A stretch of 55,427 nucleotides of DNA from Kiritimatiellia bacterium. Its GTDB lineage: Bacteria; Verrucomicrobiota; Kiritimatiellia; UBA8416; SLMC01. Each line of letters starts with the position of its first letter. Positions within the stretch are counted from its first letter, which is position 1. The notes beneath the pieces are model-generated. The model had not been told where the DNA came from, did not search any database, and saw only the letters and a program-made list of their open reading frames with translations. The translations under genes were made by a program, and so were the position numbers. Positions 8,982-55,427 of the stretch are shown here, in pieces. Location: the NCBI GenBank assembly GCA_007134465.1, contig SLKS01000018.1, forward strand, positions 1-55,427, read 5' to 3'.

Positions 8982-10220
8982 ATGTCGGTATTTGCCTATG
9001 TTAACGGGGTCTTGCGAGCGGAAGACGTTTCGGTCGAGTCGCTGGCGGAAGCATACGGCACGCCGCTGTACGTGTACAGTCGGCGTGCCATGCGCGATCG
9101 GTATGCGGCTTTGACCGCCGCGCTGAAGGCCGTGGATCCGCTGATAGCCTATTCGGTGAAAGCCAATGCCAACCGCTCGGTATTGAGCGAATTTTTCGCT
9201 CTGGGCTCCGGCGCGGACATAGTGTCGGGAGGCGAGCTGTTCCGCGCGCTGCGCGCGGGTGCGGATCCGGCGAAAATCGTCTTCGCCGGAGTGGGCAAGA
9301 CGCGCGAGGAAATTGTCGCGGCCATCGAAAAGGACATTCTTTTCTTTACGGTCGAGTCCGAGCCGGAAACCGAACGCATATCGGCCTGCGCCAGCGCGGC
9401 GGGCAAGACCGCGCGCATAGCGTTTCGCGTGAATCCCGACGTGGATCCGCAAACCCATCGCTATATCACAACAGGGAAGAAGGAAAACAAGTTCGGCTTG
9501 GATCGCGCGCGCGTTGCGCAGGCTTGTCGCCAGGCGGTGCGGCTGCCGCATGTTTCCGTGGCGGGGCTGCACATGCATATCGGCTCCCAGATTCTTTCGC
9601 CCGAGCCCTTTGCCGAAGCGCTCGATTGCGTGGTCGGTTTGTGCGAAGAGATTCGCGGGATCTGTCCAGACCTGCGCTGGCTCGATATCGGCGGCGGCAT
9701 CGGCATTCCCTATCGGCCGGAGGAGAAGCCGTTCGACTTGGCGGCCTACGCCGGCCTGCTTGTGCCGAGGCTGAAGCGGTCGGGGCTGTCCGTCGTTCTG
9801 GAACCCGGCCGGTTCCTGGTCGGTCCGGCGGGAATTCTCGTGTGCCGGGTGCAGTACGTGAAGGAAAACGCCTTCCGCAAATTCGTGGTGGCCGATGCCG
9901 GCATGAACGATTTGATTCGCCCGTCTCTCTACGAGGCGTTTCAGTCGGTCGTTCCCGTGCGCGAAACCGAAGGCAGAATGTTCGGCGATCTGGTCGGCCC
10001 GATTTGCGAATCCGGAGATTTCCTGGCACGGGACCGCGAACTGCCGGAAGTTCGGGAAGGCGATTTGCTGGCCGTGCGCGATGCCGGCGCCTACGGATTC
10101 AGCATGGCTTCGAACTACAACAGTCGGCCGCGAGCGGCGGAAATCATGGTGGATGGCGACCGGGCGTTTCCGATTCGGACCCGGGAAACGCTGGAGGATC
10201 TTGTGCGGGGGGAATGCTGA
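8982..10220 (+). CDS. lysA: Diaminopimelate decarboxylase
   Basis: ORF 8925..10220 trimmed to MSVFAYVNG (RBS GAGAGGTGGAG). Motifs: YGTPLYVYS, AYSVKAN (PLP lysine), CESGD. Confidence 0.93.
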   Translation: MSVFAYVNGVLRAEDVSVESLAEAYGTPLYVYSRRAMRDRYAALTAALKAVDPLIAYSVKANANRSVLSEFFALGSGADIVSGGELFRALRAGADPAKIVFAGVGKTREEIVAAIEKDILFFTVESEPETERISACASAAGKTARIAFRVNPDVDPQTHRYITTGKKENKFGLDRARVAQACRQAVRLPHVSVAGLHMHIGSQILSPEPFAEALDCVVGLCEEIRGICPDLRWLDIGGGIGIPYRPEEKPFDLAAYAGLLVPRLKRSGLSVVLEPGRFLVGPAGILVCRVQYVKENAFRKFVVADAGMNDLIRPSLYEAFQSVVPVRETEGRMFGDLVGPICESGDFLARDRELPEVREGDLLAVRDAGAYGFSMASNYNSRPRAAEIMVDGDRAFPIRTRETLEDLVRGEC

Positions 10221-38577: not shown

Positions 38578-38626
38578 CAACCGCGCGGTTTTTCGGCATG
38601 GTTCTTCCTGTTGCTGTTCCGTGTAC

Positions 38627-38697
38627 GCGGGTGTAGCTTAGTGGTAAAGCTCCAGCCTTCCAAGCTGGCTACACGGGTTCGATCCCCGTCACCCGCT
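38627..38697 (+). tRNA. tRNA-Gly (anticodon UCC)
   Basis: Hand-folded cloverleaf. Acceptor GCGGGTG/CACCCGC, D-stem GCTT/AAGC, anticodon stem CCAGC/GCTGG with loop CTTCCAA, T-arm ACGGG-TTCGATC-CCCGT. Total 71 nt. CCA is not encoded. Confidence 0.9.
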
Positions 38698-38781
38698 CCG
38701 CGTTTTTTTCCCGTTGTCTTTTTCTCGCGCTCCGTTCTCTTTCTGTTCACGAAATTTTTTTCGAAAAAAATTCTTTTTGTG

Positions 38782-38809
38782 TTGACACAAAGCGCCGAAT
38801 AATTAAATT
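38782..38809 (+). promoter_or_regulatory. Sigma70-like promoter candidate (TTGACA-N16-TAAATT) upstream of the lysine-rich ORF
   Basis: Perfect -35 TTGACA at 38782-38787 and an AT-rich -10 TAAATT at 38804-38809, in an unusually AT-rich spacer. It is preceded by the AT palindrome GAAATTTTTTTCGAAAAAAATTC (38751-38773). Confidence 0.4.
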
Positions 38810-38981
38810 GTTTCTTCAACACGATACGAAACGTCCGAATTGGACATGATCGTTCGTGCCTTGTGGTGAGCCTCGACGGGAAACGCGCAAGCGTTTCCGC
38901 CTTCGGCAACGAAGAGGACGGGGATCACGACATGACAATCAACTCCGGGCGCATGCTCGGAGGGAGGGGAGGTGATCGGTC

Positions 38982-39104
38982 ATGGTCGCGAAGAAAAAGA
39001 AAGCCGTGAAGAAAGCAGTGAAGAAGGCGCCGGCGAAGAAGAAGGCGGTGAAGAAAGCTGTGAAGAAAGCCGTGAAGAAAGCGGTGAAGAAGAAAAAGAA
39101 GTAA
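38982..39104 (+). CDS. Lysine-rich histone H1-like / nucleoid-associated small basic protein (40 aa)
   Basis: Not in the ORF track (<60 aa). ATG at 38982 follows GGAGGGAGGGGAGG. Translates to MVAKKKKAVKKAVKKAPAKKKAVKKAVKKAVKKAVKKKKK, stop TAA 39102-39104. A hairpin and a strong terminator follow. Confidence 0.6.
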   Translation: MVAKKKKAVKKAVKKAPAKKKAVKKAVKKAVKKAVKKKKK

Positions 39105-39154
39105 GCGACTGCCGATCACCGAAGAAACGCGGTTGCGTTTCCGGTGACGATTGC

Positions 39155-39197
39155 GAAATGACGGCCAGGGGGCAACCTCCGGCCGTCATTTCTTTTA
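39155..39197 (+). terminator. Rho-independent terminator
   Basis: 12-bp perfect stem GAAATGACGGCC / GGCCGTCATTTC followed by TTTT. Confidence 0.6.
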
Positions 39198-39297
39198 AGG
39201 TTCTGGACATCCGGCCGGGAAATGATAGGGTGCCATGGCGCGTTGGAATCGGCGCCGATCCGGTGTGTCGCGCACCCGACCCGCAAGGAGAATGTTT

Positions 39298-43957: not shown

Positions 43958-43982
43958 CCCCAAACTTCGCTCGCTTTGGGGC
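43957..43982. terminator. Bidirectional hairpin between convergent purM and OMP genes
   Basis: GCCCCAAA-N10-TTTGGGGC fills the 24-bp gap between the two stop codons. Confidence 0.45.
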
Positions 43983-45514
43983 TAAAACTCGTGCCGATAG
44001 ACGAAGCGGGCGGAAACGATGTCGCGTTCGTAGGAGAGGGCGTCCGACCGGCTGTCGCGTTCGATGCGGTAGTAGTAGGCGTCGAACCGCGTTTTGCGGG
44101 TGACCGCCACGCCGGTTCCGATTCGCCCCCACCATGTGCGGTAGTCGAAGCGCCAGGCTTCGTCCGCGTCCGCGCCCTCGCGCGCCGGCCGGTTCTCGCG
44201 CAGGGAATAGCCGGTGGCGGCCCGCAGCCGGACCGTGCGGGTCAGCGGGTAGGAGACACGCAACTGGCCGGCCAGATGGCTGAACCCGTTCACGTCCGAC
44301 CGGCTCGGCTCGATGCGGTCGTAGCCAAGCTCGATGCCCGCGCGCAGCGTTTCGTATTCCCAGTTCATTTTGTATCCGAGACGGTCGGCCGTCTCGTACG
44401 CCGAACGATAGCCTTCCCGTAACGTTCGGGCCGCCTCGAATTCGTGCGTGAGCCCTTTCCACACTTCCCCCTCGAACTGCAACGTGGCGCCGCCGACCCA
44501 GGAGCCGCCGCCCCGCTCGCCGCCGCCCCGCTCGCTGCTGTCCGGCTCGCGGCTGGCCACGCGCGTGACGCCATAGCCCGCCCAGCCGCTTACGGAGGTT
44601 TGCGGAAAAAGCCGCGCCCGCGAAAACACCGTGTATTTCTCCGAAGAAAAATCGGAGCGGTGACGCGCCGCATAGTCGGTTTGCCGAAACCGGGCCTTGA
44701 GCCCCGCGATCCAGAACGGATTGAGCCGCTGTTCGTACGCCAGGCTTTCGCTCCATGTGACGCGCTCCTGATCCCGGCCGGCCGCGGTATGGCCCCAAAA
44801 ATCCTCGCGCGCGAGCGACGCCGCCAGATTCCGGTCACGATCCATGAGCCAGTCGGCGTCCAGCCCAATTCGGTTGCGAGTGTATTTCAAACGTTCGCCG
44901 CCATAGACATCCTCGATGCCGCGCGTGTCCACGTAGTCGGTCCGATGCGTGAAATGGTTGTAGGCCGTTCCGCGGACGAACGGCGTGGGCCGAAAAGACG
45001 TGGACAGCGTGGCCCATATGCCTTCGTCTGCCAGATCGAGGCGAAACGCGTCGGCTTGCGTGCCGAGCGGATAATGCTCGTAGGAAGCGGCAACCGACAC
45101 GTCCAGATCCATGTGCCGGCTGACGATCACATAGTTGCGCGTGCGCAGGGTGGTCGTCAGCGGAAACTCGGACCCGTCCTTGCGGATGGCGCCGCGCCGG
45201 TTCGCGAAGAGAAAATCGGTGCCTGCGCCCGAACTGCGCGTCCAGCGATAGCCGAATGTCTGCGTGAAGCCCACGTTCGAATAGAACGGGCCGATGCGCA
45301 ACAGGGCATAGGGCGGCACGACCGCTTCGCGATGATTGGCGAAGCGCAGCTCCTGGGCCAGGCCCGCCTGGCCGGCAACAACGCTCAGAACCGTTGCCAG
45401 CGCAATGGCCTCGATTATTCCTTTCCCGCCGTGATTTGTGCCGGCATAGCGCCCGTCTTCTTCCGACCCTTCGACAATCTTAAGAAACCGATCTTTTGCT
45501 TTCCTGCGATTCAT
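43982..45514 (-). CDS. Putative outer-membrane beta-barrel protein
   Basis: 510-aa ORF with an N-terminal signal-like segment, alternating aromatic/polar beta-strand pattern (many Y/R/T/G), and a terminal ...FVYRHEF with C-terminal Phe. Confidence 0.6.
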   Translation of the reverse strand: MNRRKAKDRFLKIVEGSEEDGRYAGTNHGGKGIIEAIALATVLSVVAGQAGLAQELRFANHREAVVPPYALLRIGPFYSNVGFTQTFGYRWTRSSGAGTDFLFANRRGAIRKDGSEFPLTTTLRTRNYVIVSRHMDLDVSVAASYEHYPLGTQADAFRLDLADEGIWATLSTSFRPTPFVRGTAYNHFTHRTDYVDTRGIEDVYGGERLKYTRNRIGLDADWLMDRDRNLAASLAREDFWGHTAAGRDQERVTWSESLAYEQRLNPFWIAGLKARFRQTDYAARHRSDFSSEKYTVFSRARLFPQTSVSGWAGYGVTRVASREPDSSERGGGERGGGSWVGGATLQFEGEVWKGLTHEFEAARTLREGYRSAYETADRLGYKMNWEYETLRAGIELGYDRIEPSRSDVNGFSHLAGQLRVSYPLTRTVRLRAATGYSLRENRPAREGADADEAWRFDYRTWWGRIGTGVAVTRKTRFDAYYYRIERDSRSDALSYERDIVSARFVYRHEF

Positions 45515-45766
45515 GGCTCTACTCTCGGGATTCGGGCCGTGAACTGGTTCATGCCGTAGTCGGATTCGAGCATGTTCACCACCAGCTCTTCCAGGGCAAC
45601 GCGGGACACTTCCATTTCACCTTCCGACGACAGGCGCTTCGTCGGCATGCACAAGACCGGCCCCTTGCAACAAACGCTGCGATTCCGCGCTGTGTATGTT
45701 CCGCTTGAACTGAGCGCGGCTATCCTCGCCCCTGGCGATCAATTCGATAACCTCTATTGCTTCCAT
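45511..45766 (-). pseudogene. Heavily deleted remnant of an AlbA_2/Schlafen-type DNA-binding, HATPase-like regulator
   Basis: Two short frames, hand-translated. MEAIEVIELIARGEDSRAQFKRNIHSAES... (45766-45617) matches the typical N-terminus (LIxxGESxxLEFKR). EVSRVALEELVVNMLESDYG matches the REALxExxxNALxHRDY motif. Only ~250 nt of a normally >1.2-kb gene remain. Confidence 0.35.
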
Positions 45767-48372
45767 AGCTGGTATATCTCCTTTCGGCGGGCAAATGCCT
45801 CGCGCCCGCCTTCCATGATCGAAACGATCGCCTTCTGAACGTCCGGGGCATCGATGCTGCCGATCTGTATGTCGCTCGCGCCGGACGCGAAGGAGCAGCC
45901 CCCGACTTGCTCGGAATCGCCAAGGACAGGGAAGTTCGCGTTGTGAGTGGCGAAAATGAATTGGACGTTTGGCTTCAGCGAACGGATGAGCTTGATTACA
46001 TCCTCAAAGATGGTCTGATTGTCAAGATCGTCTTCGGGCTGGTCGATGACGATCAGGTCGTTGTCACGCTGGCTAAGGATGAAAAGGATCAGAGCCGATG
46101 CGCGTTGCCCAAGCGAGTGATCGCGAAGATTCTTGCCATGATACATGATGTCGTAGGTGTTCGGAACCTGCCATGTAAGCAGAGATGCCTTCGCTTCATT
46201 GAAGTAACGGCGGAACGTGTCGCCCGAGTCCCCCATGCCGGAGCAGACCGTATCCAAGCTTTGGAAGAGCGAGATGAAGTCAGCATGTCCATCCAACGCT
46301 GTCTCCAGTGTCGACTCGCGGAGTCGGCTTCCGCGGAATTGCGCCTTCAGTTCCTCCAGCATTCTTTCCCGATTGCCTTTGTATTGCGGGAGAATTCGCA
46401 ATGCGTCCTGGCTCGCGTTGAGTTTTTCAATTTCGCTTTCTGCCTCCTTGAACTCCCGATGCCAGAGATCATTCAGGCGTTTGAGTTCCTTGAAAAGCAC
46501 GGCCTCCAAGGCGCTCTTTCGGCTTCGGCTCTTCCCCGTTTCGGAGAGCGCGAGTGTAACCTTCTGCAGTTTCGCATTCAGTTTCACGAAATCGTCAGGG
46601 CGTACACTGACCGTCCCGTTCTGTTGAAGTTTCTCGCTTAACTCCCGCTCGATCGCTGCGAACTCCTCCTTCAAGGCATCGCGCCGTTTCTGGATATCAT
46701 CGAACTTCTCCCGCAGCGCACGGGAGTCGGACGCAGCCTCGCCAATCGCAGTTCGGAGTTTATCCGGCACTTTGCGGATGCGGTCGAGAATGACGTTCAG
46801 CTCGTCCATCACATCCCGATTCTCTTTGGATTCCAGGCTCGGCAGCGCGGCCAGTTCGCTCTCCTGTTCGGCGAGGAACGCCCCCGCGTCGCGAACGAAT
46901 TTGTCGACCGTATCCACTGCGCGGTGCGCATGAGTCACATCGGCGTTAAACTGCACCTGGCGTTTGAGCTGCTCTTCGACGCCATGTTCGCGAAACAACT
47001 TGAGGCGGAATTCCGTGTCGCGTTTCTCGTTCCGGTACTCGGCTTCAACCGCATCGATATCCTTCAGTTTGTCCAGGCTTCCGAGCACATCAAGGACGCG
47101 TTGCTTCTGTGCCGCAATTTCGTGCCGCACAGCGTCGAGCTTTGACCCAACGAGACGTTCGACCAACTCGGATTCGGATCCCTCGCCACGTTTGACCAGC
47201 TCTTTCTGACCGAAGAAGAGCGGATTCTTGAGGGGAACAGCGATGCCCGGCTGGAGTTCGCCATTATGGTACACGTCCCGGCTTTCGTTGAGTATGCGAC
47301 GCACCTCGAAGCGACGGCCTGCGGAGTCTTCCGTTTCGACAACTACCTTCCCGCCACTCTTCAGAGCATACCTGACTAGCTCCCGCTTGTATGCGAGGTC
47401 TGTTTCATCCGCTGTGCCGGGCATGGGCAAATCAAGTCCGTACCGAAGACACTCGAGAATGGCCGACTTGCCGCTTCCTCGGATTCCGATTAGACAACTC
47501 ATCTCGGGCGAAAGATCAAGACGTTTGCCATTGAGAATTCCGCCCTCGAATCGAATGGCGCGCACCCACGAGTGCGGCTGTTTCTGTGCTATTTTTTCGG
47601 ATAGTCGGTCTGCTCCGGGTTTCAGGGAAAACTGAACCGCTTCAAACGTAAAAGCTCCTATCTTGAGGAATACGGGTTTCCCTTTGCCAACCTCCTCCAT
47701 CTTCTTCGGGTCGGAGCCCTCGACTTCCGCCGGATACCAGTCGCCCAGCCAACTCTCGACTTTCTTCTTCAGATCGCGTGTTCGGACCTTCTGAAAGGCG
47801 GCTGTGCGCAGACGGAAAAGGTCGCTCCGGCCCAGTTCTTGAATGCGTCCGCCTTTGAGACCGCCGAAGAGACCGTTATCCGCTTCGACGTGTGCGAAGA
47901 TCAGCAAGTAGTCTCGCTGGAATTTGTCCAACTCCCGAATCGTCTCCAGGAGATCATGGTTCGATCTGGCATTACTGTTGTCGCAATTCGATTGCCCCCC
48001 GAATGTCACGCTCCGAAAACCGTTGATATAGTCGGTCTGCTCCTGGTTTGATATCCACTCGTCGCTGAAGACAACAAGGGTGTGGATGCCGTTAGCCCCG
48101 TCCTTCACGGAGAGTTCGATTCCTGGCATCAGATAGATATCCTCTTTTCCAGCCGCTTTTCGCAGGGCCTTGAACTCGTCCAAATCGAACTTGTTGTGAT
48201 TTGCGATTACACCAACGCGAATATCGGCCTGCTTGAGAGCGGCGACGTATCGGACAACGAAGTCCTGTTCGTTGCCCGCATCGCTGAACTCCTTGTCGCG
48301 GTGAGTGTGCAGGTGAAAATCCGCGCGGACCCACCGACTTCCATTCTTGAAGAACTCGGTTTGGCTGCTCAT
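45754..48372 (-). CDS. PHP phosphoesterase fused to SMC/ABC-type (Rad50/SbcC-like) ATPase, a candidate defence effector
   Basis: ORF 45754..48582 trimmed to MSSQTEFFKNG (AAGGAG RBS, ATGA overlap with the upstream ORF). PHP motifs: DFHLHTH, IANHN, GIELS, FAHVE. Walker A is GIRGSGKSA. About 350 aa of coiled coil follow. Signature-like SLGQRASAL, Walker B LIVIDQPEDDLD, H-loop FATHNANF. Confidence 0.8.
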   Translation of the reverse strand: MSSQTEFFKNGSRWVRADFHLHTHRDKEFSDAGNEQDFVVRYVAALKQADIRVGVIANHNKFDLDEFKALRKAAGKEDIYLMPGIELSVKDGANGIHTLVVFSDEWISNQEQTDYINGFRSVTFGGQSNCDNSNARSNHDLLETIRELDKFQRDYLLIFAHVEADNGLFGGLKGGRIQELGRSDLFRLRTAAFQKVRTRDLKKKVESWLGDWYPAEVEGSDPKKMEEVGKGKPVFLKIGAFTFEAVQFSLKPGADRLSEKIAQKQPHSWVRAIRFEGGILNGKRLDLSPEMSCLIGIRGSGKSAILECLRYGLDLPMPGTADETDLAYKRELVRYALKSGGKVVVETEDSAGRRFEVRRILNESRDVYHNGELQPGIAVPLKNPLFFGQKELVKRGEGSESELVERLVGSKLDAVRHEIAAQKQRVLDVLGSLDKLKDIDAVEAEYRNEKRDTEFRLKLFREHGVEEQLKRQVQFNADVTHAHRAVDTVDKFVRDAGAFLAEQESELAALPSLESKENRDVMDELNVILDRIRKVPDKLRTAIGEAASDSRALREKFDDIQKRRDALKEEFAAIERELSEKLQQNGTVSVRPDDFVKLNAKLQKVTLALSETGKSRSRKSALEAVLFKELKRLNDLWHREFKEAESEIEKLNASQDALRILPQYKGNRERMLEELKAQFRGSRLRESTLETALDGHADFISLFQSLDTVCSGMGDSGDTFRRYFNEAKASLLTWQVPNTYDIMYHGKNLRDHSLGQRASALILFILSQRDNDLIVIDQPEDDLDNQTIFEDVIKLIRSLKPNVQFIFATHNANFPVLGDSEQVGGCSFASGASDIQIGSIDAPDVQKAIVSIMEGGREAFARRKEIYQLWKQ

Positions 48373-48773
48373 GGCACGCTCCTTTGAACATTGATCTGAA
48401 TCACGCATTCTGCCGGGCGTGAGTAACGGATGCCGGGCGCGGTGTCTTGTTCGGTAACGGAAAGATTCGACAGGGAGTTCGTGGCCTGAATCTTGTCGGC
48501 CACAACCGCCAGCGCCAGGCAAAACATCTCTTCCGGCAGATCGGCTGGCGGTTCGAGTTGGCTGTCGTACCGTTTTGCCCACAGATTTGTTATAGGAAAC
48601 GCTGCGGCTTCAGAACCTATAACAGCGCCAGTCTCGTCAAGCAGGTCGAATGTCACCTGCGCTTCCCATCTGTGCATGCCAGGACCGCTACGGATTTGAT
48701 GCGTTCTGTAAACCAGCTTCTTCGTGATCATATCGGCAGCGTCCTTCTGTGTTATCCGCCATGCTCGCGGCAA
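48369..48773 (-). CDS. Hypothetical protein (120-134 aa), coupled to the PHP-ATPase
   Basis: ORF 48369..48773. Its stop overlaps the PHP-ATPase ATG (ATGA). An alternative start MITKKLVY is at 48731. No family recognised. Confidence 0.5.
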   Translation of the reverse strand: MPRAWRITQKDAADMITKKLVYRTHQIRSGPGMHRWEAQVTFDLLDETGAVIGSEAAAFPITNLWAKRYDSQLEPPADLPEEMFCLALAVVADKIQATNSLSNLSVTEQDTAPGIRYSRPAECVIQINVQRSVP

Positions 48774-49327
48774 GCATTCAATTTCAGACTGCCCCTCTCC
48801 GTCACAACCACATATTCGCCGGGAGGTAAATCCATGCCTTGCAGTTTGTTCTTGATGTATTCCAGGGCATGACCGTGCAGCAGTTCAACCAATTTTCTTA
48901 GCAAAGTTTCTATCTCGATCAACTTGAATCCGTTTGGCAGCCAAGATTTGGCTTCTATTGTGATTGTTTTATCTTGCCACACAATAATTCTTGGATTTGT
49001 TGCGTATTTCACCCCGAACAATTCTACATCCGCATCAAGGTGCATGAAAACCTCGTTTCGCAACTTAAGCATGCTCTCGTGTAGCTTCTTGTTACGGGCC
49101 GAGATTAGATTTTTCGCAGGAAGACATCCCAAGTTGTTGCTGGACATAAATGGTGCGGCATAATACCCGCAGATGGCCCCAAACAGCGACATGGAGACAG
49201 GATGCTTCCCCGCCTCAATGCTTTTGTTCAGGAGCGATAATATATCCTGGGCCTTCTTGAATGAACTCATGGCATTCCATGCCAGCATGAATTCCCTGTC
49301 AGTCCGGATGGAATAGGGCTTGGCCAT
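48752..49327 (-). CDS. Hypothetical protein (191 aa), low-GC
   Basis: ORF 48752..49327. It starts 5 nt after the mod stop with a GGAGG RBS inside the mod 3' end. Hand-counted GC is ~40-42% in a ~63% GC genome. No family recognised. Confidence 0.55.
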   Translation of the reverse strand: MAKPYSIRTDREFMLAWNAMSSFKKAQDILSLLNKSIEAGKHPVSMSLFGAICGYYAAPFMSSNNLGCLPAKNLISARNKKLHESMLKLRNEVFMHLDADVELFGVKYATNPRIIVWQDKTITIEAKSWLPNGFKLIEIETLLRKLVELLHGHALEYIKNKLQGMDLPPGEYVVVTERGSLKLNACREHGG

Positions 49328-49332
49328 GGATT

Positions 49333-52008
49333 CTACACCTCCATCACCTTGGTGCTTTCCTCGCCGAACTGGGAGATGACGCGGACGGCGATTTTCTGGC
49401 CGGCGCGGGCCAGGGGGATGGGGTGCGAACGGTGGTTGTAGACGCGCTCGAAGGCTTCATCGTCCACCTCGATGCGCAGCGTCTTTTCCGCCGCGCGTTT
49501 GGCGGAGGTTCCGGCGAGCGATTCAAGCCCCTTTTTCCATTTGGCGAACTCGCCTTTGTCGCCGCCGCAGAAGAATACCTGCCGCACCACGAAGTTGCTG
49601 CCGTCGTAGTCGCTGTCCACCATCCAGTAGGCAATGTCGGCCGCGTCGCGCGATTTGACCACATCCCGGATCGGATCGTAAATGTCCAGCCCGAGAATTT
49701 CGAGTTCCACCTGCGGATGTCCGTCTTCGGATTTGCCCTTGAGCTTGCGCACGGCAATGTCCGGTTCGCCGATGGTGACGAACGAGGCGGCTTTCCTGTC
49801 CTTCTTGAGCAGGCCGTCCTGCATGAGGTCGTCGTGCATGCGCACTTTGGTGACTTCAAAGCTGCCGGCGCTCATGGTCACGTTCCGGTTGCTGATGGCG
49901 GATTCGAACGAGAAGCCCAGGATAATCAGCCAATCGGCGTCGCCGCGCGCGCGGCATTCCTTGACGGCTTCATTCACGGCCTGGCGCGAGACGGTCCCGA
50001 ATTTCGGGCCGATATGGAAGTAGGCTTTCTTTTCCACGGCGGCCGCCTGCTTCTTTTTGCCATTGCCGGACGCACCTTGATAAAAACCCTCGGCGTGAAG
50101 ATAGGCGGAGGTCAGGCGATCGACGCGGGTGAAGACCGCGTGTTCGTTCTTGATGCCGTTCTTGACGCCGGCGGATTTGAGATGCTCGAAGATGCGCTCC
50201 TCGAAAAGCTGCAGGTCGTCCGCGTCGGTAGCGGCCTGTTCCAACGCGCCGGGCGCGACCGGATCGAAATTCTGCAGCGTTTCCACCGTGAAGGGACCGG
50301 CTACGCGCAGCTTCTTCCTGTCCTCTTCGGGCTGATCGTAGAGCGTCTCGGTGGCGGGCGGCTCGTCGTTGGCAATGCTTTTGAGCGTGATGTGCGGCAC
50401 GGTCTTGTAGATGAAGCCCTGGCGGATATCCTCGCCCTGCCGATCGTAAAGCTTGTAATACGGGAACGCGGCGGTCATCAGGCGCGTCTTGGCGATGTTC
50501 AACGCAATCCGGCTGGTATCAATCGTGATCCAGCGCCGCCCCCATTGCTCCGCCACATACGCCGTCGTCCCGCTCCCGCATGTGGGGTCGAGAACCAAAT
50601 CGCCAGGGTCGGTGGTCATCAGGAGGCAGCGTTGGATTACCCTGCCAGCCGTTTGCACAACATAAACCCTGTCTGTTGCTCCGGCCGTATCGGTCCAATT
50701 GTTGCCTAAATTAAAAACAGGAAAGTCATCAAAGTATCTAACAAAAGACAATCGAGAGCCTTGGGCAACAACCCGTTTCTGTGATATCAATCTGTTCATA
50801 CCATCAAGGGTTGTTGTCCAACCTCTTGAGCCTGACGGCATATACGTGCGGCCCTCAAACTTCACAGGAAATTGCATTGCCGTTCCGATTCCTGATGGCC
50901 GCCCCTGTCGTTGAGACGTTATGTCGCCAAGCCGTAAAATTCTTGCGCCGTTGGGCAATGAGAGAGGATCACGGATTTCCGAAGGGGTCAAACGCCGCCG
51001 AGAACCGTCTTTCAGTTCAACATACTGATACATCGATCCACCAACGCCGCCCAATTCTTTATCTGAATAAAGCTGGCGATATTTCAGTGAATCACTGTTG
51101 CGAGCATACCAAATCACATAGTCAACTGTACCCGGAAGATATCTTGCAGTTTGCCCGGCCGTTTTCTGCACAGTAATCAAGCTCACAAAGTTCTCGCTAC
51201 CGAAGGCTTCATCCATCAGGCATCGGACGAGGTGAACGTTTTCGTCGGAGATTTGGACGAAGCAGGAGCCGGATTCCGCAAGCAGGTCTTTGGCGACGAG
51301 CAGGCGGTCGCGGAGGTAGCTCAGGTAGGAATGGATGCCGAGTTCCCAGGTGTCGCGGTAGGCTTTGATCTGTTCGGGTTCTCCGCAGAGGTGTTCGTCC
51401 TTGCCGTCGGTGACGTTGCGGTCGTTGAGTTTCATCTGCCAGTTGCCGCCGTACTTGATGCCGTAGGGCGGATCAATGTAGACGCATTGCACCTGACCGG
51501 CCATGCCTTCGCGCTGCAGCAGGGAGTTCATCACCAGCAGGCTGTCGCCCTGGATCAGGCGGTTGGACCAGCCGTCCTTATGGCTGTAGTATTCGGAAAT
51601 CTTCTCGATTTCGTCCATGTCGAGGGCATGGCCGAAAAGCTCGTTGGCGGAGAAGAAGTCGAGCTGGCTGACGGACGGCTCGCGCAGCCGGTAGAAGTTG
51701 CGGATGAGGACTTCGGGCGCGATGTGTTCGTGGCGGTAGAGGGACCGGATATCCACCGTCAACCGGTCTTCGGCGTCTTCCATGCCGTATTTGCGCATCC
51801 AGAACAGTTCCGGATCCTGTCCGCGATGCACCACCGGGTTTTTCGGATAGGCGGCTTTCGGCTGCGCGTGTTTCACCTTCGGGCTGGCGGTCTCGGCGCC
51901 GGCCTCCTCGCGCGATGGAATATGCGCGCGCTTGCTGCTTTTCGCATGCTTGATTGCGTCAACGGCCATGGTTCTTCTCTTCCCATCTGCAATAATCGCA
52001 TCCGTCAA
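49333..52008 (-). CDS. mod: Site-specific DNA methyltransferase, beta-class N6A/N4C (Type III Mod-like), 891 aa
   Basis: Motif [17 protein letters not shown] precedes motif [27 protein letters not shown] (order IV..TRD..I = beta class). It has long N- and C-terminal extensions. Confidence 0.88.
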
Positions 52009-52056
52009 GGATTGGATGGTATCATTTGCGAATACAACGAGCCCATATTGGACGAT

Positions 52057-52932
52057 CTAGCCAGCCTCCGGGAAACCCATTTTTTCGGTCACAGGCAACT
52101 GTTGCTCCCGCAACAAAGCCATCAGGCGATGCGTCCATTGATTCTGCGGCTCGACAATATCAACAATATGCGCGAGAAAAACCAAAGTGTTGTATACATT
52201 GCGACGACTTAGCGGGTTCACGCTGTTAGCAATGGTCGAGGGATGCCGTTTGGGTATGGCCACAGTTATGGTAAAACGCCTGTTCCAGAGTCGGGCATGA
52301 TGCGCACATAGATTGCGAATGTACACCCCGTGTTCCAGCAGCGATTTCATAAGATCAGGGCTAATGCCGTAGATTCCGGCTATCTTTTTCCGGTCATGTT
52401 CATGGCCTATGTTCTCGTAGAAACGGCTGAGCAACCCAAACGTCATGATTTCGCATACAGCCCAGATCGGCGGCCGATGCGTGTTGTGTTTGTTTTTGAA
52501 ATGCGAAACAAACACCTCGTGACTGCGCGCCAATTCATCGTCGAGTCGATTCAATGCGCTGGTATGTCGCTGCGCATTCCTGAAAACAGACGGGATTTCG
52601 TAAGCCTGAGCGCCATATTCGTGTCCAAGGATATACGCCCAGTGCGAACGAACCGATATCTCCAGCCTTTTCAATGCCTCCATTACCAGCGTTCGCAATT
52701 GCCGATCGAAACAGTACAATCCCCACATGTTGCCAAATGTAGTCCCTGGCAGAAAACGATCCGGTTTTCCCGGCTCTGTCAACGGAAAACGATAGGCCGA
52801 TATACGATAGTAATTGTGGTGCGCAAGACAGTGCAGAGCAAAAGACCTGTTTTCAACAGTTAGGCCTCGGCCCTCAAGGATCGCAAGCTGCTCTTCATAG
52901 GTTTTTGCGGGTTTGCTGAAGCTCATTGGCAT
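52057..52932 (-). CDS. Abi_2 (AbiD/AbiF-like) abortive-infection family protein
   Basis: 291-aa ORF. Contains YEEQLAILEGRGL, HHNYYRISAY, FDRQLRTLVMEALKRLEISVRSHWAY and IRNLCAHHARLWNR, the characteristic Abi_2 pattern. GC is ~50%. Confidence 0.85.
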   Translation of the reverse strand: MPMSFSKPAKTYEEQLAILEGRGLTVENRSFALHCLAHHNYYRISAYRFPLTEPGKPDRFLPGTTFGNMWGLYCFDRQLRTLVMEALKRLEISVRSHWAYILGHEYGAQAYEIPSVFRNAQRHTSALNRLDDELARSHEVFVSHFKNKHNTHRPPIWAVCEIMTFGLLSRFYENIGHEHDRKKIAGIYGISPDLMKSLLEHGVYIRNLCAHHARLWNRRFTITVAIPKRHPSTIANSVNPLSRRNVYNTLVFLAHIVDIVEPQNQWTHRLMALLREQQLPVTEKMGFPEAG

Positions 52933-53052
52933 ATCTTTAAATAAGTAACCCGCCGATTTGAGCGTAGCGTAAAGCCAGAGGCTTGGCGGGTATTGTTGCG
53001 ATCAACTTGGCGCCATTAACAGCGTTTGTCAACAAAAATAATTGTTTTTTTC

Positions 53053-55427
53053 TCATAACCCTGCGATTTTCGCGCGCAACTGGTTCTTGATGTCGCGGAT
53101 ATCGTTGGCCACTTCGATAAAGGCCCATGCGGGCTGGCCGTATTTTTCGCGCACGGCATTGACTGCCGGCAGCCAGCGGTTCTCCACATGCCATTTCTTT
53201 TCCGCCTTTTCCTTGTTCATCCCGGTTACCTCGACAATCAGATTCACCGGGCCGGCGTCGGTTTCGCAACGGGCGATGAAGTCCGGAAAATAGCGCTTGT
53301 CCTCGCCTGCCTGCACATAGGGGATCGAGAAACCGAGAAACGCGTTCTTGACGTATCTGCCGACAAGGCCTTCGTCGGCCAGTTCTTCCAGCGTCTTGGC
53401 CGCAATCTGTTCCCAGCTTTCGGTATCGGCCACAACGCAGTTGACATGACTGCGCGCGGTCGGGAATACCGGCCGGGTGGTGAGCCCGTGCACATGGCGG
53501 GTGCTGCCGACGGGGTTGTAGTAATTGAGGATGGGCAGAACCACATCGTCCCCGCGACGGCCGGACTGGATGGCCCGGACGATTCCGCAGAGATATTTTT
53601 CAGGGCTGTAGCACCACAGCAACTGCTTGAAACAGTCGCCATAGCATACCACGCGCGTGCGATACCACTCCTCGACAATGGCCCTGAGCTTGCCGAACTT
53701 CTGAAACTCGACATTGCCGTCTTCGTCCTTGAAGCTGTGCGCAAGCAGCTCGCGGGCGATCCTGTAGATCACCTGCTGGTCGCGCAGCTCGCGCAAGTCG
53801 TCCACGCCAAGCTCTTCCTCGGCATCGGAGACCGCTGTCGCCAGGACGGTACGGGTCGGAATGTTGGGGCCGATCTCGAAGTTCTCGATGTGCGAGAAAT
53901 CGGCGGTGATTTCGCCGTCCGGCGTTTCCACGCGGTAGCCGTCCACATTCAGGAACTCGATTTCATAGTCGCTCTGCCGCTCGGGCAGCGCGCGAATAAC
54001 CGTCTGCTCGCGCGGGGGAGGCGGCGCGGACTTGCCGCCCTTGAACATTTTGAACGGCACGCCGATGATATGCGCATATTCCGGCGGGAACTTCCAGGTC
54101 TTGATGCGGCGTTTGTCATCGGTCGGCAATCCGGCCTTGTCGTATCCCTGCAAGTAGTAGTTCTTGCGACGCAGGGCGCGTCCGGCCACCTGCTCGCACA
54201 GAAGCTGAGAACCGAAGGCGCGAATGCCGACTATATGGGTGACGGTATTGGCGTCCCAGCCTTCGGTCAGCATCGAAACCGAAACCACGCAGCGAATGTG
54301 CGCCCCGAGCGTGCCGGGCTTGCCGACGGTGTTGACAACCTCGCGCAGGATTTCGGCGTCGGCGATGTTTTCCGCCGCCCCCGCGCCGTGCAGCCGTGCG
54401 TAATCGCGCTTGAACAGTTCGATTTCCGAGGCGAAGACGGTTTTGAAATCGTCGCCGACCTGATCGGAATTCTCCAGCGCGTCGCTGTCAATCAGCAATG
54501 TCGGCGAACGTTCGAGCGGGTTCCCGGTGTTTTCGTCGTAATTGGAGAACAGCGGCAGATTGCCGCCAATCGAAACAGTGTTGCCTTCGCGGTCGATCGA
54601 ACGTTCATATCCGGCCATCCATTTGTAGACTTCCTTGGACACCGAAACATTGTTGCAGACGACGATAAAGACCGGCGGGGAGTCGAAAAGCTCGCGAGTA
54701 CGCTCGAAATCCTCCTCGTAATGCCGATAGAACTGCCGCAAGGCCACGGCCAGCAGCTCCGGCATGGCGGGCGGAGTTTCCAGCAGGGTCTGTCCGGCTT
54801 CCTTGGCCGCCTTGCGCCGGGCTTTCATGCCTTTCTTGGGCAATCGGTCTTTTACATGCTCGTACAGATTCCGCAGCACGGGCATTTTCAGTTCCTGGGT
54901 ATTGTCGCTTTCAGGCAGAAACGGGATTTTGACCAGGCCGGATTCGATCGCCTCGATCAGCCCGAAATCCGACGCCACCCACTCGAAGAGCGCATAGGCT
55001 TGGTGTCCCGAACCGGTCAAGTAATACGGGGTGGCGCTCAGATCGTAGATGTGGCCGACCTTGAAGCGTTTGCACAATTCTTTCAACCCGTTGTACCAAA
55101 CGGCGGCGCGCGCGTTTTCCTCGGCGGTGTTTTCGCCTTCGGTCCGCTGCCCCTTGCCGATGGGCTTGTAGCAATGATGCGCTTCGTCGTTCATGACAAG
55201 CAGGCGCGACCCGCTTTTGAACTTGCCCAGCATGCGGCGCATCGCCTGGCTGTAGTCCTCGCGAACATCCTGCTTGTTGCCGGCAGCGTCGAGTTTGCCG
55301 TCAAACGGAGTGCGCTTGTTGCCTTGCAAGGCGCGCGGCTCGAATCCGTGATAATTGGCGATGACAATTTTCGCGTTCAGTCCCGGCAGCAGCTTGCGCC
55401 AGCCGGGCGGGACAAGTGTGCGCTGGC
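53053..55427 (-). CDS. res: Type III restriction Res-like helicase-nuclease (5' end outside window)
   Basis: ORF 53053..55329. The frame stays open to the window edge (hand translation ...[21 protein letters not shown]). Motifs: DEAH (VMNDEAHHC), SAT (DLSATPY), [20 protein letters not shown]-terminal PD-(D/E)xK-like YFPDF...IVEVTGMNK is present. Walker A must lie upstream of the window. Confidence 0.85.

Follow-up and report, generated by a model that had tools for sequence, protein, structure and literature searches.

The window analysed here is the whole of a 55,427-nucleotide (nt) stretch of DNA from a Kiritimatiellia bacterium (contig SLKS01000018.1 of assembly GCA_007134465.1), numbered along the forward strand. 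Its minus strand, from the edge at 55427 down to 45754, carries a block of six co-directional open reading frames (ORFs): the restriction-modification (R-M) genes res and mod with an abortive-infection gene, abi, between them, followed by ORF191, ORF120 and the gene of a large ATPase. An earlier reading of the bare sequence (the original prediction) had described this block as a compositionally mosaic defence island. It had recognised a Type III-like R-M pair and an Abi_2 gene, and had found the three genes behind mod assignable to no textbook system, their tight coupling to mod suggesting either a methylation-gated second effector or a stacked independent system. All six ORFs were present at the predicted positions. 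The features of the block are as follows.

53053-55427, minus strand: res, for a Type III-like, ATP-dependent helicase-nuclease subunit; the 3′ 790 codons of the gene, with the frame open to the window end.
52933-53052, minus strand: res-abi spacer, 120 bp, AT-rich, the sole sizeable intergenic gap of the block.
52057-52932, minus strand: abi, an AbiD/Abi_2 gene of the HEPN superfamily, between res and mod.
49333-52008, minus strand: mod, for a Type III-like N6/N4 DNA methyltransferase; gene callers begin it at the ATG at 51969, which gives a product of 878 amino acids (aa).
50659-51111, minus strand: variable central segment of mod (approximately aa 300-450), the presumed target-recognition domain.
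48752-49327, minus strand: ORF191, of a small unannotated family, candidate AbiU2-like HEPN protein.
48369-48731, minus strand: ORF120, starting at the ATG at 48731 chosen by the gene callers; a TTG at 48773 gives 134 aa (ORF134).
45754-48372, minus strand: trlF, for a protein with a PHP domain and an SMC/ABC-type ATPase, intact, with its ATG at 48372.
45511-45766, minus strand: trlG relic, ~250 bp left of a ~1170-bp AlbA_2 + HATPase_c_4 gene.
45510-48389, minus strand: nucleotide homology (blastn) to a related trlF-trlG cassette in locus L004, marking the cassette borders.

The spacings also agreed with those predicted: 120 bp between res and abi, 48 bp between abi and mod, and 5 bp between mod and ORF191. 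ORF191 and ORF134 overlap by 22 bp if the TTG is used and are 20 bp apart if the ATG is used, and an ATGA overlap follows before the ATPase gene.

The "PHP-SMC ATPase" at the distal end is, by its profile match, a TrlF-family protein, so that at least this one of the three genes behind mod can be assigned. Its match to NCBIfam model NF045780 spans residues 80-938 of the extended ORF and reaches 502.5 bits (cut-off 350). Because the family model matches from residue 80, the 942-aa ORF beginning at a GTG is an over-extension, and the realistic start is the ATG at 48372. In an alignment of 11 sequences, the protein was 89-47% identical to 10 homologues and kept every invariant residue, including DFHxH, NHN, H97 and H161 of the N-terminal (PHP) part as well as the Walker A motif GxRGSGKS, the signature SLGQRAS and the Walker B motif IDQPEDDLD. 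The best 120 matches were 68-100% identical and were reported from Planctomycetota-, Verrucomicrobiota-, Syntrophales- and Nitrospirota-type metagenome-assembled genomes; a scan of genome contigs with TrlF alone gave two loci.

TrlF is named from the temperature restriction locus (TRL) trlR-trlF-trlG of Photorhabdus laumondii, where growth arrest at 36 °C is lifted by spontaneous mutations in trlG, none having been recovered in trlF (PMC7554251). In all ten distinct trlF loci that we fetched (L003, L004, L005, L007 and L019-L024), a trlG gene of ~390 aa (AlbA_2 + HATPase_c_4) overlaps the 3′ end of trlF. TrlF also matched 235 plasmid records, and among the plasmid matches listed, all 25 with annotation extend over the overlapping TrlG, there named "RNA-binding domain-containing protein". 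A tblastn search of the window with three TrlG proteins detected only fragments between 45766 and 45517, corresponding to aa 1-29 (90% identity), 132-152 (76%), 269-297 (55-62%) and 330-387. These fragments are collinear, lie in two frames and are separated by large deletions, and the remains overlap the 3′ end of trlF just as in intact operons. The decayed gene that had been placed at the inner edge of the island, and taken for a regulator, is real and is this trlG relic. A trlR gene of the helix-turn-helix (HTH) type does not lie upstream of trlF here, and neither ORF120 nor ORF191 gave an HTH match.

The borders of the TRL cassette were drawn by blastn comparison with L004, the closest relative, which has a TrlF 89% identical to that of the window. 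Nucleotide identity was 85.5% over 48389-45679, and homology resumed at 45624-45568 and 45570-45510, ending at the trlG stop of L004. At the other end it begins 17 bp upstream of the trlF ATG, and this upstream portion covers only the ribosome-binding site (RBS) and not the HTH gene of L004, indicating that ORF191 and ORF120 lie outside the cassette. The ATGA "overlap" between ORF120 and trlF is the start of trlF itself, ATGAGC, within the 17-bp-bordered stretch conserved with L004. Because any ORF entering that frame must stop at ATGAGC, the overlap is no evidence of evolved coupling.

These results contradict the proposal that the three genes behind mod form a unit coupled to it, since the partner of TrlF elsewhere is the downstream trlG and the cassette begins so close to trlF. 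Homologues of the 191-aa, 134-aa and PHP-ATPase genes were likewise not co-localised, a result that the original prediction had named beforehand as contrary to a unit: an ORF191-family hidden Markov model (HMM) and a phmmer search with ORF134 gave no match in the TrlF and BPTD_3080 loci examined (L002-L012 and L019-L021).

Several TRL cassettes lie close to R-M genes. In L020, the E. coli IncC plasmid pNDM-1_Dok01, the order is hsdR-trlF-trlG-hsdS-AAA-hsdM, with overlapping codons. The pair L022/L024 provides two further arrangements: HTH-SNF2 helicase-trlF-trlG-DUF1156-DUF499/HEPN_Swt1 in one, and trlFG directly upstream of hsdR-hsdS-hsdM in the other. TRL cassettes do have a general affinity for R-M operons; because the neighbouring R-M types differ, we favour hitch-hiking over a specific methylation gate for trlFG. 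In L004, trlF is preceded by a small HTH gene (9651-9944) that scored 72.6 bits against NCBIfam MAD1 (methylation-associated defence system; cut-off 80) and also matched PADLOC mad1, and TrlF of the window had a weak mad3 match (E = 3e-9). These similarities hint that the TRL and MADS systems have parts in common. A literature search for TrlF or TrlG as phage defence returned only the Photorhabdus paper (PMC7554251).

ORF191 has its RBS, GGAGG, within the end of mod, and its own frame gave the best codon log-likelihood (+0.10 bits per codon). Among 5.8 billion proteins, a word-indexed search recovered nothing but the query. Exhaustive HMMER searching of 1.84 billion representatives brought up 30 homologues, 114-214 aa long (E 7e-35 to 8e-4). 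In the resulting alignment of 31 sequences, P59, F60, H83, R90 and H96 are invariant and Y56 and D98 nearly so. The family motifs are "YARPF" and "H-x6-R-[ND]-x4-H-x-D", the latter containing an R-x5-H of the HEPN type (R90, H96). Pfam HEPN_AbiU2 was matched weakly by 12 of the 31 members (best E 2.7e-4), and each other Pfam family by at most one. An AlphaFold2 (AF2) model built from the family alignment (predicted local distance difference test score, pLDDT, 91.9; predicted template modelling score, pTM, 0.85) consists of a helical bundle and two beta hairpins; HEPN entries 4nqf, 3o10 and 1wol appeared only among its weak helical-bundle matches in Foldseek, and a profile search of PDB sequences gave no match. 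From the invariant motif and the family-wide matches we infer, with moderate confidence, that ORF191 is a divergent, unannotated AbiU2-like HEPN protein, whose family we would treat as a clade of its own, so far without annotation.

Homologues of ORF191 were found without TrlF, Mod or ORF120, in unrelated small contexts; a metagenome-contig scan with a six-sequence alignment added one 2.4-kb contig. In five of the six contexts having downstream sequence, an unrelated co-directional gene follows 10-76 bp behind the family member (these contexts include L013, L014, L015 and L029, on contigs of 1-2.4 kb, together with 48369-49327 of the window). The downstream genes encode a TIR_2 protein, a T5orf172/MUG113 protein with an Imm5-like one, an ankyrin-repeat protein and two unknowns, one of 203 aa, and show no mutual similarity. 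Two homologues on alphaproteobacterial plasmids stand alone.

ORF120 is an orphan ORF filling the gap between ORF191 and trlF. No homologue was detected in the 5.8-billion-protein word search, in plasmids (tblastn), in the HMM libraries or in the fetched loci. It has an AGGA 10 nt ahead of its ATG, and its own frame was the best of six by codon log-likelihood, with the same value as ORF191 (+0.10 bits per codon). A single-sequence AF2 model was of low confidence (pLDDT 65, pTM 0.59), and its Foldseek matches were noise, none being significant; the pTM of this model makes a real small protein plausible. A DUF4325/STAS-like protein, of the type found upstream of trlF in L007, was considered for ORF120 and rejected, as no Pfam match was obtained at E ≤ 10.

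The two recognisable modules were borne out by NCBIfam, Pfam and PADLOC matches. Against NCBIfam NF046055 (BPTD_3080 family restriction endonuclease), Res scored 774.1 bits and aligned with positions 220-969 of the 970 in the profile. This score is just below the full-length cut-off of 800 because ~219 N-terminal residues lie past the contig end; Res also had a weak PADLOC REase_III match. Mod matched Pfam N6_N4_Mtase (98.3 bits) and PADLOC MTase_III PDLC03632 (628 bits) and is 60% identical to a Hymenobacter plasmid Mod that lies behind a BPTD_3080 Res. On these matches res and mod are a Type III-like R-M pair of the BPTD_3080 family. PADLOC 2.0 gave zero matches to a full-length Res of this family (L028) and is therefore unlikely to report BPTD_3080 R-M systems complete; a literature search on BPTD_3080 gave no result.

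The centre of Mod is 20-46% identical to three relatives, compared with 60-90% in the flanking motif blocks, and nucleotide homology to L010 and L011 stops at ~51185 and restarts at ~50667. This segment of low identity between conserved motif blocks coincides with the low-GC (guanine plus cytosine) centre of mod and is presumably the target-recognition domain.

A tblastn search of plasmids with Mod found 36 near-full-length relatives, and seven of these loci were inspected (L010, L011, L012 and L025-L028). In all seven, res (BPTD_3080 or "type III R/helicase") is directly upstream of mod. The slot between res and mod holds one or two foreign genes in three of them (a 173-aa hypothetical, a UPF0175/DUF3368 pair and a 307-aa hypothetical), so that a foreign gene occupies the slot in four of eight family loci when the window is counted in. 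Unrelated co-directional cargo stands right behind mod in five of the seven, often with overlapping codons. In one locus this cargo is a DUF4747 gene with a helicase of the Schlafen type (annotated DUF2075) and then another DUF2075 gene; in others it is a CBASS (cyclic oligonucleotide-based antiphage signalling system) phospholipase with a nucleotidyltransferase, a dCTPase (PADLOC, 451 bits) and, in two loci, UvrD-like helicases annotated as 3′-5′ exonucleases. The order res-AbiD-mod-cargo in the window is a further case of this pattern.

In the window, the occupant of the slot is, by its profile matches, a clear AbiD/Abi_2 member: abi scored 179.1 bits against Pfam Abi_2 (PF07751; cut-off 25.6), aligning with all 184 profile positions, and 245 bits against PADLOC AbiD. 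Anantharaman et al. (2013, PMC3710099) describe Abi2/AbiD as "embedded in R-M operons", place AbiU2 in "R-M operons" as well, and propose a PrrC-like second-line role for at least 16 HEPN clades tied to R-M operons.

Base composition confirmed that the block is foreign to its surroundings. Its GC content is 55.8%, compared with 63.1% for positions 1-45500, where the standard deviation is 2.4% in 2.6-kb windows and 3.1% in 1-kb windows and the lowest 1-kb window has 55.3%. Each cassette has its own level: res 59.3%, abi 50.2%, mod 57.7%, ORF191 46.9%, ORF120 54.5% and trlF 55.3%. The value of abi is below the lowest background window of similar size, and ORF191 is lower in GC than any 400-bp background window (minimum 48.5%). 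The hand-counted values of the original prediction were roughly right, except that ORF191 has 47% rather than ~40% and that the centre of mod never falls to 37% at 300-nt resolution (50.7-52.7% over aa 301-500).

At the inner border, GC returns to 64% within 400 bp (inside 45400), and the flanking genes are of PurM-, TolB-, TonB/TolQR-, TsaD- and protease-type housekeeping functions. The stop of the trlG relic overlaps the ATG of a 510-aa host ORF (43982-45514; 64% GC, no Pfam match) as another ATGA at 45511-45514, so that the TRL cassette adjoins the host gene without a spacer. At the outer end, an independent ENA metagenome contig (L001, 10.5 kb, 99.98% identical) also ends at base 55427, inside res. 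This shared end suggests a repeat or a strain-variable breakpoint in res that stops assemblers. A scan of the region for promoter and terminator consensus sequences gave counts no higher than those of shuffles and reported no promoter site in the res-abi spacer, where an internal promoter could nevertheless be conceived. A separate low-GC patch (38600-39200; 48.5-53% compared with the 63% background) is placed just after tRNA-Gly(TCC) (38627-38699) and before a tolQ/tolR/tonB/tolB-like cluster; no protein family was found for its ORFs.

Taken together, the block is probably a horizontally acquired defence island in which separate cassettes, all in one orientation, are stacked on an R-M scaffold. 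The proposed three-gene system is not a unit, and of the two possibilities raised at the outset the evidence favours the stacked independent system over the methylation-gated effector. As a first line, Mod would methylate a short site read by its variable centre and Res would cut unmodified DNA, as expected from their family. The AbiD/Abi_2 HEPN gene fills the res-mod slot, and ORF191, a second small protein with a HEPN-like motif (AbiU2-like), appears translationally hooked to the end of mod; the two products would most likely act as abortive-infection RNases in a second line. The orphan ORF120 comes next, and the distal TRL cassette is truncated, with TrlF intact, trlR absent and trlG a relic. 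Because TrlF is always paired with TrlG elsewhere, this module is probably inactive or crippled. The whole block is probably read through from promoters upstream of res, perhaps also from the res-abi spacer. The tight spacing would reflect operon hitch-hiking of defence cargo rather than one multi-protein machine.

Several observations weigh against this interpretation. TrlF is fully intact, which is unexpected for a long-dead module. In three of the ten other contexts, trlFG is within or beside methylation-based systems, and a functional link between TrlF and R-M may exist in general. ORF191 itself scored 13.4 bits against HEPN_AbiU2, under the Pfam gathering threshold of 26.8, and Foldseek searches of its model against PDB and BFVD gave nothing at E ≤ 0.001 and no significant HEPN match. 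ORF120 has no explanation in a stacked island, and the outer part of the island lies past the contig end.

Four other explanations, and one combination, were weighed against the stacked island. In a PrrC-like coupling, which we consider unlikely, AbiD and ORF191 would be silenced by Res/Mod and set free to act as suicidal RNases once a phage had disabled R-M; the linkage to mod would be functional for these two and not for TrlF. This is the model proposed for at least 16 HEPN clades, with Abi2/AbiD and AbiU2 among those linked to R-M (PMC3710099), and both the RBS of ORF191 inside mod and the foreign gene in the res-mod slot of four of eight family loci are consistent with it. However, the slots are filled differently in every locus (a toxin-antitoxin pair, hypotheticals, CBASS, dCTPase and helicases), so that generic hitch-hiking fits better than a specific protein-protein gate. 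The other ORF191 homologues are not beside R-M genes, though most of their contigs are very short.

It is quite unlikely, in our view, that ORF191 and ORF120 form a two-gene unit consisting of a HEPN-like protein with a swappable partner (effector, antitoxin or immunity protein). The co-directional gene within 10-76 bp in five of six family contexts would be expected of such a unit, and ORF120 is preceded by an RBS and scores as coding-like in codon usage. Against this, the downstream genes are mutually dissimilar and two plasmid homologues are alone; the sample is tiny (contigs of 1-2.4 kb), and adjacent unrelated defence genes are to be expected in islands.

A third explanation, to which we give little credence, is that TrlF acts alone here like the single-gene system Ppl, the loss of trlG being tolerated or even favoured. 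All family-invariant residues of TrlF are kept, its top PADLOC match is Ppl, another PHP-ATPase, and in Photorhabdus trlG mutations lift the growth restriction while no trlF mutations were selected, which makes natural loss of trlG plausible (PMC7554251). The score of 128 bits is nevertheless far from the Ppl cut-off of 1000, no other locus has trlF without trlG, and trlR is missing here too. Similarly improbable is a combined reading in which ORF191 is the founder of a new AbiU2-like HEPN clade and the constant half of a two-gene unit with a swapped partner (TIR, GIY-YIG-like T5orf172, ankyrin-repeat or ORF120), while the two cargo slots of BPTD_3080 loci (res-mod and post-mod) are wired to R-M in a PrrC-like manner. 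The three-gene effector, in which the methyltransferase upstream would gate ORF191, ORF120 and the PHP-ATPase, is close to refuted. In its favour are the very short gaps (5 bp; 20 bp or overlap; ATGA), the recurrence of TrlF-type genes beside methylation-based systems, the resemblance of a relative's TrlR-like HTH protein to MAD1 and the weak mad3 match of TrlF. Against it, the trio is never together in the other loci searched, the conserved partner of TrlF is TrlG, homology begins 17 bp before trlF with the ATGA intrinsic to that gene, the R-M systems beside trlFG are of unrelated types (Type I; DUF1156/DUF499), and other MADS or MANTIS components are absent among the six proteins.

With the stacked island as the preferred reading, the supposed three-gene system resolves into a known TrlF cassette whose partner is dead, plus a divergent HEPN gene and an orphan ORF; only that ORF and the under-described HEPN clade are left without explanation. 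Loci of the BPTD_3080 R-M family recurrently hold unrelated defence genes, both in the res-mod slot and behind mod. The uncharacterised occupants of these positions (the ORF191 family, ORF120 and the plasmid hypotheticals) are reasonable candidates for defence screens. The erosion of trlG beside an intact trlF parallels Photorhabdus, where loss of trlG, not trlF, relieves a growth cost.

Among known systems, Ppl (NF042955; PADLOC PDLC02208) resembles TrlF in joining an N-terminal PHP phosphoesterase to a C-terminal ABC/SMC-type ATPase. TrlF scored 128.1 bits against its cut-off of 1000, mainly the C-terminal ~120 residues being aligned. Ppl is a single-gene system that acts alone, whereas TrlF normally occurs with TrlG. 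MADS and MANTIS (Gao_RL) were also considered, in view of the weak mad1 and mad3 similarities, and rejected, because PADLOC reported only the weak mad3 match on TrlF and no other mad or Gao_RL component among the six proteins. In PrrC-EcoprrI, the gene of a HEPN anticodon nuclease lies within a Type I R-M operon. The window is like it in carrying RNase-type suicide genes in an R-M operon, with a possible two-layer defence, and differs in that its HEPN genes lack an ABC-ATPase fusion and the R-M type is another; physical gating would apply here only by analogy.

ORF191 resembles HEPN_AbiU2 in length (191 aa compared with 193 profile positions), in its invariant R-x5-H and in the weak matches across its family, and differs in its score (13.4 compared with 26.8 bits) and in having no significant structural match. 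The position of both abi and ORF191 inside an R-M operon is that described for AbiD and AbiU2 (PMC3710099). The TRL operon of Photorhabdus laumondii (PMC7554251) is matched by a TrlF above the NCBIfam equivalog cut-off and by the overlapping remains of trlG. The window differs from that operon in that trlG is reduced to ~250 bp, no trlR-type HTH gene is upstream and the cassette stands behind an R-M operon.

The closest agreement on the R-M side is with BPTD_3080 systems, in the profile match of Res, the identity of Mod, the order res then mod, and the motif blocks around a variable centre. Classical Type III operons have the order mod-res, and the BPTD_3080 order res-mod is the reverse. Apart from the ~219 residues of Res that lie past the contig end, the window differs from these systems in holding an AbiD gene between res and mod.

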